Assembly (NCBI GenBank): GCA_000743035.1
Contig: CP008939.1
Span: 137,124-169,123 of the forward strand
Length of the DNA: 32,000 bases
Reading direction: 5' to 3'
From: Candidatus Paracaedimonas acanthamoebae
GTDB taxonomy: Bacteria; Pseudomonadota; Alphaproteobacteria; Caedimonadales; Caedimonadaceae
How positions within the stretch are numbered: the stretch's first letter is position 1; every line of letters starts with the position of its first letter. The notes beneath the pieces are model-generated. The model ran no database searches. It had not been told where the DNA came from and worked only from the letters and a program-made list of their open reading frames with translations. The translations under genes and the position numbers were made by a program. This document shows, piece after piece, positions 16,532 to 16,761 of the stretch.

Positions 16532-16761
16532 TTACCTCTTCTCCTTGTTTATCTATAGAATCAAAGAGCAGGGTAACGAATAAATCACTTTCCTAAACGG
16601 GGTTTGTACCTCCAATGCCGGGTTCGTTGTACTCCCTGGACCATGTTTTTTAACGGGGTAATCCACCAATAAGCAGACGGCCGCTCTCTTTGATAGCTCA
16701 ACTTTAGCAGTTAACGAGCGCGAGTTTCTATTTATTAGGGAAAGGGGTGCCATTTAGGTGG
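16532..16761 (-). ncRNA. Candidate bridge (guide) RNA in the IS110 left-end leader
   Basis: This is a 230-nt noncoding leader that is visibly more GC-rich than its surroundings. It contains exact 9-mers equal to both insertion junctions (16645-16653 = 16761-16769; 16588-16596 = 15159-15167). Transcript ends and fold were not determined. Confidence 0.4.

Follow-up and report, generated by a model that had tools for sequence, protein, structure and literature searches.

The DNA analysed here, referred to as the window, is a stretch of 32,000 nucleotides from Candidatus Paracaedimonas acanthamoebae. On its minus strand lies an element of the IS3 family, with an orfA and an orfB, which is interrupted by a second element, of the IS110 family. 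The nested element carries a gene for a recombinase, preceded by a non-coding leader at its left end. Coordinates of these features, and of the leader segments discussed below, are collected in Table 1.

Table 1. Features of the interrupted IS3 element, of the nested IS110-family element and of its leader, in window coordinates. Functional names given to parts of the leader are predictions.
Feature	Coordinates	Strand	Remarks
Host IS3-family element	14222..17075	-	1,253 bp without the insert; Pfam HTH_Tnp_1 and rve
IS3 terminal inverted repeat TGATCTTGCTACAA	starts 17075	-	
IS3 orfA	17030/17009-16728	-	HTH_Tnp_1
IS3 orfB	15115-14240	-	rve
IS110-family element body	15163..16761	-	1,599 bp; 1,601 bp including one copy of the AA core
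AA core, left copy	16762..16763	-	right copy at 15161-15162
IS110-family DEDD/Ser recombinase gene, 454 aa	15164..16528	-	TAG stop 1 nt from the element end
Non-coding left end (leader), candidate bridge RNA gene, 230 nt	16532..16761	-	structured core 16563-16688
Inverted repeat, inner arm AGAAACUC	16722..16729	-	leader positions 33-40; 8 bp here, 6-12 bp in the family
Inverted repeat, partner arm GAGTTTCT	15174-15167	-	4 nt inside the right end
Third match, AACUGCU	16706..16712	-	complementary to right-target bases 1-7
Putative target-binding module	16639..16682	-	outer stem GGCCG (16682-16678) with UGGUC (16643-16639); inner hairpin 16668-16654
Loop 1, 5' strand UCUGCUUAU	16669..16677	-	putative right-target guide CUGCUU, 16676-16671
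Loop 1, 3' strand, with the first 9-mer	16644..16653	-	putative left-target guide UUAAAAAA, 16653-16646
Putative donor-binding module	16570..16637	-	outer stem about 16637-16630 with 16575-16570; inner hairpin 16614-16598
Loop 2, 5' strand CCCGGCAU	16615..16622	-	expected place of a left-end guide, by analogy
Loop 2, 3' strand, with the second 9-mer	16581..16597	-	putative donor guide UUAGGAA, 16596-16590

The recombinase matched the Pfam families DEDD_Tnp_IS110 (PF01548, E 1.2e-22) and Transposase_20 (PF02371, E 2.5e-13). In an alignment with the IS621 transposase of the PDB (8wt6, E 6.7e-8) the GID, ESTG, TDxxDA and SG motifs were in register. Pfam and this alignment together give the protein an N-terminal DEDD, RuvC-like domain and a C-terminal Tnp domain with the catalytic Ser. 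Under the name IS110 family transposase, an identical protein is recorded for Candidatus Paracaedibacter symbiosus, and some relatives already carry the NCBI name "IS110 family RNA-guided transposase". Three other sequencing runs yielded short contigs that contain the same element between the same IS3 flanks. When other contexts were sought by exact look-up of the recombinase and the IS3 OrfB, only short contigs with the same occupied IS3 site came back.

The boundaries of the nested element were set from an uninterrupted copy of the IS3 element and from the conserved ends of 79 relatives. The insertion point is the A7 frameshift run of the IS3 transposase gene. OrfA was rebuilt assuming seven A, and the search with it yielded 98-aa proteins that were 95-99% identical over their full length. 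One of these led to L165, an IS3 copy without insert in which orfA and orfB stand in the -1 arrangement. Its site reads TCTTAAAAAAAGCAGTTGCC (longer reading GAGCGAGATATCTTAAAAAAAGCAGTTGCC), with seven A. At the occupied site six A precede the insert and three follow it, and the duplication is thus exactly 2 nt (AA). It follows that the core is AA, that the element runs from its first base, C 16761, to its last bases ..GTTTCTTAGG, ending at G 15163, and that the right target begins AGCAG. An earlier sequence-only reading of this DNA had recognised the AA core, but had started the right target at GCAG, one position off by the seven A of L165. This gives TCTTAAAA-AA-AGCAGTTGCC as target and GTTTCTTAGG-AA-CCACCTAAATGG as donor junction. 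The target coincides with the A_AAA_AAA slippery run, at which OrfA (..ILKKAVAIFSE..) and the -1 frame OrfB part. The uninterrupted IS3 copy (L165:1-3318) is itself situated between TraH/TraG_N and a TraG/TrwB-type coupling protein gene, in a conjugative transfer region.

In the orientation of the element, the left junction reads ..GATATCTTAAAA-AA-CCACCTAAATGG (also written GAGATATCTTAAAAAA/CCACCTAAATGG) and the right junction ..GAGTTTCTTAGG-AA-AGCAGTTGCC (also written GGAGTTTCTTAGG/AAAGCAGTTGCC). Copies of both are present in the leader. On the plus strand, gttttttaa is found at 16645-16653 in the leader and at 16761-16769 across the left-end junction, and ctttcctaa is found at 16588-16596 in the leader and at 15159-15167 across the right-end junction. 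Read on the minus strand, the leader copies are TTAAAAAAC at 16653-16645 and, 57 nt further on, TTAGGAAAG at 16596-16588. The sequence-only reading had picked out these two 9-mers, and both identities are exact. It had added a 7-nt match, agcagtt at 16706-16712, which is the reverse complement of aactgct at 15154-15160. Among 200,000 dinucleotide-preserving shuffles of the leader, with the terminal 9 nt left out, the left 9-mer was present in 0.84% and the right 9-mer in 0.42%; both were present together in 10 shuffled leaders (5e-5).

A covariance model built from relatives, R1, scored 107.8 bits at the leader, with no other match in the window, and matched upstream of the recombinase gene in all 80 of 80 independent metagenome loci. 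Forty-five distinct leaders, aligned without reference to structure, gave a consensus of two modules, each made of an outer stem, an internal loop and an inner hairpin. In this alignment 92.3% of the cells pair in the named structure, versus 33-51% when partners were slid, and 13 pairs have changed on both sides, versus 2-6 in the slid controls. Out of 500 shuffles, none equalled the observed values in four of five measures; the fifth, further pair types, was the exception. The outer stem of the first module is paired in 100% of cells, with compensatory changes (GC 21, GU 19, AU 5; CG 33, UA 12), and its inner hairpin in 98%. For the second module the figures are 90% for the outer stem, where three of four pairs have changed on both sides, and 98% for the inner hairpin (AU 31, GC 13). 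The outer stem of the second module may tentatively be extended by ACGAA (16627-16623) with UUCGU (16580-16576), paired in 67% of cells in the MAFFT register.

Three G.U pairs are invariant or nearly so, which indicates an RNA of the minus strand, that of the gene. The minimum-energy fold of the single leader sequence was no better than shuffles (z -1.0) and did not show the consensus structure, and Rfam held no relevant family for the leader, at the gathering threshold or at E up to 10. In the consensus of 45 leaders both 9-mers fall in strands of the internal loops and none in helices; burial in stable helices had been named as the outcome that would speak against a guide role. One relative, L123, has two RNA motifs.

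Two sets of relatives were used to follow the leader segments across the family, 159 loci in total. The genome set comes from a scan that gave 79 loci with 60-85% amino-acid identity to the recombinase. All 79 elements are of about 1.6 kb, start with C and end with GTTTCT(T/C)AGG, followed by AA. The metagenome set consists of the 80 independent loci in which R1, built from the genome set, detected the RNA. Of about 75 loci, roughly 30 read ..(E/D)(R/N)(D/E)ILKKA(A/T)A(F/Y)FAKE.. once their flanks are rejoined; an rve gene usually follows downstream if the contig is long enough. Relatives at IS3 frameshift windows come from Alpha-, Beta-, Gamma- and Deltaproteobacteria, Acidobacteria and Actinobacteria. 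In many phyla the position is ..ERDILKK/AAAFFAKE.. of IS3-family genes, and relatives on clinical Enterobacterales plasmids likewise stand behind ..ERDILKK. Judged by their flanks, most relatives appear to sit in IS3 frameshift windows, across phyla; some lineages occupy other A-run sites or quite different sites. One rejoined pair of flanks could be aligned as a single stretch with an IS3-family gene of E. coli that is annotated as having a programmed frameshift; there is a codon indel at the rejoined junction, so that the A count is left unsettled by that alignment.

Head-to-tail junctions, in which a right end is joined to a left end through AA, occur in the assemblies at L067, L131 and L147; a similar junction at L072 has an extra GAA. 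Such junctions may reflect either tandem copies or circular forms of the elements.

The 5' strand of loop 1 carries CUGCUU, complementary to top-strand AAGCAG, that is, to one A of the core and right-target bases 1-5. A concordance matrix revealed antidiagonal covariation between this strand and the right flank. Variants of the segment stand opposite their own flanks: AGACTT in L023 and L126, GACAGTTT in L148, CAACTTT in L143, and also GGCCTT, CGGCTT and GTGTTT. The 3' strand of loop 1 holds the first 9-mer, which comprises 8 nt of left target plus core, then C 16645, which equals the first base of the element. Each flank that differs from TAAAAAA is accompanied by a corresponding difference in this segment. 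Matching variants are TTGTCAAAC (L017, L119), CCAAGAAAC (L028), TTTGACAAC (L030-35), TTGAAAAAC (L088), TTCTCAAAC (L121, L161), TTAAGAAAC (L106) and TCTAGGAGC (L104), and also TGAAAAAAC.

These matches were compared with permutations in which flanks were swapped among elements, a procedure that ignores kinship and so overstates independence: the right guide made 147 matches in the genome set (permuted 104.5 +/- 7.3) and 186 in the metagenome set (permuted 135.9 +/- 7.1), the left guide 74 (permuted 56.5 +/- 3.1) and 127 (permuted 105.1 +/- 3.8), and in each of the four cases 0 of 20,000 permutations reached the observed number. The individual variant lineages are stronger evidence than the permutation figures. 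An A-run is common to most targets, and the covariation of the left guide is carried by roughly ten independent variant lineages. Segments of loop 1 therefore covary with both halves of the target, on opposite strands, in two independent sets of loci.

In one divergent relative (L104:922-1060; RNA model 35 bits), TCTAGGAGC is the guide in loop 1 and agrees with the left flank, gtgttctaggag/C; loop 2 contains TATGAGAG. The pattern suggests a lineage that would have been retargeted to a different core, AG.

The third match, AACUGCU (16712-16706), which the sequence-only reading had listed as a weaker match, did not hold up as a guide. It belongs to a variable hairpin upstream of the two modules, of which the loop motif CUAnAnU is conserved, and L003, whose right target is the same, is the only relative to retain the match. 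Beyond this closest relative it shows no covariation in the family, and a role as guide is improbable.

The 3' strand of loop 2 holds the second 9-mer. Its first 7 nt, UUAGGAA, correspond to the right end of the element plus the core; AG at 16589-16588 follows and equals right-target bases 1-2. Both long guides thus end in the AA core, a dinucleotide common to target and donor. The donor guide changes together with the element end: TCAGGAA is found with CTCAGG ends (L006, L008, L011, L015, L023, L085, L090 and others), TTAGAAA with a TTAGA end (L021), and ATAGGAA with a CATAGG end (L028, L107, L127, L133). By the same permutation, which overlooks kinship, there were 58 matches with the right end in the genome set (permuted 50.7 +/- 1.9), a number reached by 16 of 20,000 permutations.

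The bases that follow each long guide behave differently from the guides. The left guide is followed by C, which the elements invariably have as their first base and which no target has at that place (A or G). Conversely, AG, next to the donor guide, agrees with the right target but differs from the element. Across the relatives, the first extra base of the donor guide tracks the first target base (excess 0.28 at position 173), and for the two extra bases together against right-target bases 1-2 the permutation on the genome set gave p about 0.04. In IS621, handshake guides adjoin the 3'-strand guide and pair with the non-cognate DNA after strand exchange; when they are paired with cognate DNA, exchange is blocked (PMC11208158, Hiraizumi et al. 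2024). By analogy, the extra C and AG look handshake-like, and they may serve the same function.

We consider it highly likely that the 230-nt left end encodes a bridge RNA programming the DEDD/Ser recombinase. The leader would be transcribed and the RNA bound by the recombinase; loop 1 would read the target and loop 2 the donor. The base or bases 3' of each long guide would correspond to the opposite partner (the element for C of loop 1, the target for AG of loop 2), which is why the 9-mers would equal the recombined junctions rather than the substrates. Such a non-cognate match would follow the logic of the IS621 handshake guides and favour strand exchange. As programmed, the RNA would specify TCTTAAAA-AA-AGCAGTTGCC, which in an IS3-family transposase gene covers the A7 slippery run and the Ala codons after it, so that the element would land in IS3 copies, in one orientation, and interrupt synthesis of OrfAB. 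The position of the 9-mers in the loops, their covariation and the target class of the family all agree with the proposal of the sequence-only reading that the 9-mers are bridge-RNA guides, one for the IS3 frameshift site and one for the element's own end.

Another explanation would make the leader mainly a 5' UTR that controls expression of the recombinase, at the translational or transcriptional level, with the resemblance to junctions secondary. The structure stops about 30 nt before the ribosome-binding site, and the element is always co-oriented with IS3 orfA, so that read-through transcripts would carry the leader. However, control of expression leaves the covariation with flanking host DNA and with the right end of the element unexplained, and as the main role of the leader we find it improbable. 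A dual role, as UTR regulator and guide RNA, is possible.

Somewhat less probable still is that the leader segments act as DNA, the internal junction copies being protein-binding sites or pseudo-ends used, for example, in synapsis or regulation. Pairing by RNA and recognition as DNA look alike in sequence alone; the covarying inverted repeat of 6-12 bp, which links the right end to leader positions 33-40, could be a protein site; and a promoter and terminator scan found neither a promoter-like site nor a terminator in the leader or at the element ends. Against such a role for DNA, the sequence with which loop 1 covaries lies outside the element, in the host, and flanks the core left and right, the matches being on opposite strands; the flanking stems covary too, with invariant G.U pairs that make sense only in an RNA of the gene strand. 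Moreover, homologous recombinases have been shown to use such RNAs (PMC11208160, PMC11187229). Coincidence through low complexity in an AT-rich genome has in its favour the six A of the first 9-mer and the presence of each 9-mer alone in 0.4-0.8% of shuffles, but it is virtually dismissed by the joint probability of 5e-5 and already refuted by matches to the junctions at the same two positions in about 150 relatives of differing sequence, GC-rich ones included, and at targets other than A-runs such as TCTAGGAG, TTGTCAAA and TTCTCAAA.

A guide for the left end of the element was also sought. By eye with 6-mers and 4-5-mers, and in the concordance matrices, none was convincing on either strand of the loops or in the hairpins. 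In particular, the 5' strand of loop 2 showed neither complementarity nor covariation with CCACCTAAA.. in either set. One candidate, GGTGG in the hairpin of loop 1, was rejected, being conserved throughout the family without covarying. Even near-identical copies differ freely at left-end positions 2-3 (CCACC here, CTACC in L001).

A different link between the leader and an element end is provided by the inverted repeat. Its arms covary across the family, with GAGTTTCT facing AGAAACTC, GTGTTTCT facing AGAAACAC and AAGTTTCT facing AGAAACTT, and it reaches 12 bp in L012 and L058. This repeat could be a protein site, a site of RNA-DNA pairing, or an RNA helix formed across the circle junction.

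The loops and core of a bridge RNA were described for IS621 (PMC11208160, Durrant et al. 2024), and bridge RNAs were predicted in 85.7% of IS110-group elements (PMC11208160). As in IS621, the recombinase is of the DEDD/Ser type, and the predicted RNA is encoded in a long left end upstream of the gene. There are two internal-loop modules, the target loop first and the donor loop second, and the guides include a 2-nt core that target and donor share. In both systems the 3'-strand guide is adjoined by bases that match the non-cognate partner. The recombinases are nevertheless distantly related (E 6.7e-8) and differ in length, 454 aa here and 328 aa for IS621 (8wt6). The core is AA here and CT in IS621. 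No left-end guide was found here, unlike in IS621, and the inverted repeat of 6-12 bp compares with one of 2-3 bp. IS621 targets REP-like repeats, whereas the target here is the IS3 frameshift site.

The sequence-only reading had doubted that the order of the segments fits the IS621 layout. The doubt was unfounded for the loops, as the target loop precedes the donor loop in both, but apt for the guide strands, which are swapped within each loop. In IS621 the bottom strand is paired by 8-9 nt in the 5' strand of a loop, and the top strand by 4-7 nt in the 3' strand. Here, in the direction of the gene, pairing with the top strand would fall to 5-6 nt of the 5' strand, and pairing with the bottom strand to 8 nt of the 3' strand. 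When the opposite DNA strand is read, the IS621 guide order and the handshake position are both recovered, which implies that the bridge RNA gene is oppositely oriented relative to the polarity defined by the guides.

ISEc21, also of the IS110 family, targets a conserved coding segment of IS3-family genes, the DDE codons (PMC11187229, Siddiquee et al. 2024), and is a precedent for one IS programmed to insert into another. Its seekRNA resembles the present RNA in coming from an upstream non-coding region and in guiding insertion into a conserved IS3-family coding segment (PMC11187229). On the other hand, the ISEc21 recombinase has 358 aa, and its bottom-strand match precedes the top-strand match, the opposite of the order found here. 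The guide order here is the one reported for IS1111-group seekRNAs. In that group (ISEc11, ISKpn4, ISPa11), however, the RNA lies downstream of the gene, at the right end, whereas here it lies upstream, with the stop codon 1 nt from the right end, and the recombinases are of 330-350 aa against 454 aa. The IS1111 group has subterminal inverted repeats of 7-17 bp; the repeat here has 6-12 bp, with its left arm 32 nt inside the end.

The nested element is thus very probably a well-supported new example of a mechanism described in 2024; the mechanism itself is not new, and what is known of it is left unchanged. The variant layout and the target class, the IS3 frameshift site, may be undescribed: in a literature search of incomplete coverage we found no report of IS110 elements, or of an IS110 subfamily, that target the IS3 frameshift window. 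With considerably more reserve, the relatives could be viewed as a large cross-phylum IS110 subfamily, undescribed as such, which would exploit other insertion sequences, homing to the conserved slippery A-run and Ala codons in transposase genes of the IS3 family, and combine the upstream RNA position of the IS110 group with the reversed guide polarity of the IS1111 group and a long inverted repeat, its left end being perhaps recognised without a contiguous guide.

The element would add a naturally validated bridge RNA, for which target, donor and core have been reconstructed in full and about 150 relatives show which positions are programmable. A whole IS110 lineage would use the most conserved nucleotides of IS3-family genes, those of the frameshift window, as a portable safe harbour. 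Each insertion would silence one IS3 copy, and precise excision could reverse the silencing. For the engineering of bridge recombinases, the reversed loop polarity, the layout of guide plus handshake bases (8+1 and 7+2 nt) and the missing left-end guide offer contrasts with IS621.

The window contains other mobile elements too. Directly upstream of the interrupted IS3 element is a second, different IS110-family gene (17073-18293, minus strand, 406 aa, with both Pfam domains), whose TGA stop (17075-17073) overlaps the IS3 terminal inverted repeat TGATCTTGCTACAA, of which it forms bases 1-3. Only about 106 nt of non-coding DNA precede this gene, and they do not match R1. An exact 12-nt direct repeat, AACTTGAGCTCT, at 18400-18411 and 14210-14221 (minus strand), brackets the second IS110-family element together with the IS3 element and its nested insert. 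It is too long for an IS3 target duplication; the window contains only these two copies, and 6 of 100 shuffles gave at least two matches when one mismatch was allowed. Elsewhere in the window, Rfam detected a group II intron above the gathering score (D1-D4 at 90.7 bits, catalytic domain at 46 bits; 28987-29126 and 30814-30964, plus strand). An ORF fragment resembling the C-terminus of an rve-type transposase (18508-18747, plus strand) adjoins the second IS110-family element, and the region around that element is a pile-up of insertion sequences.
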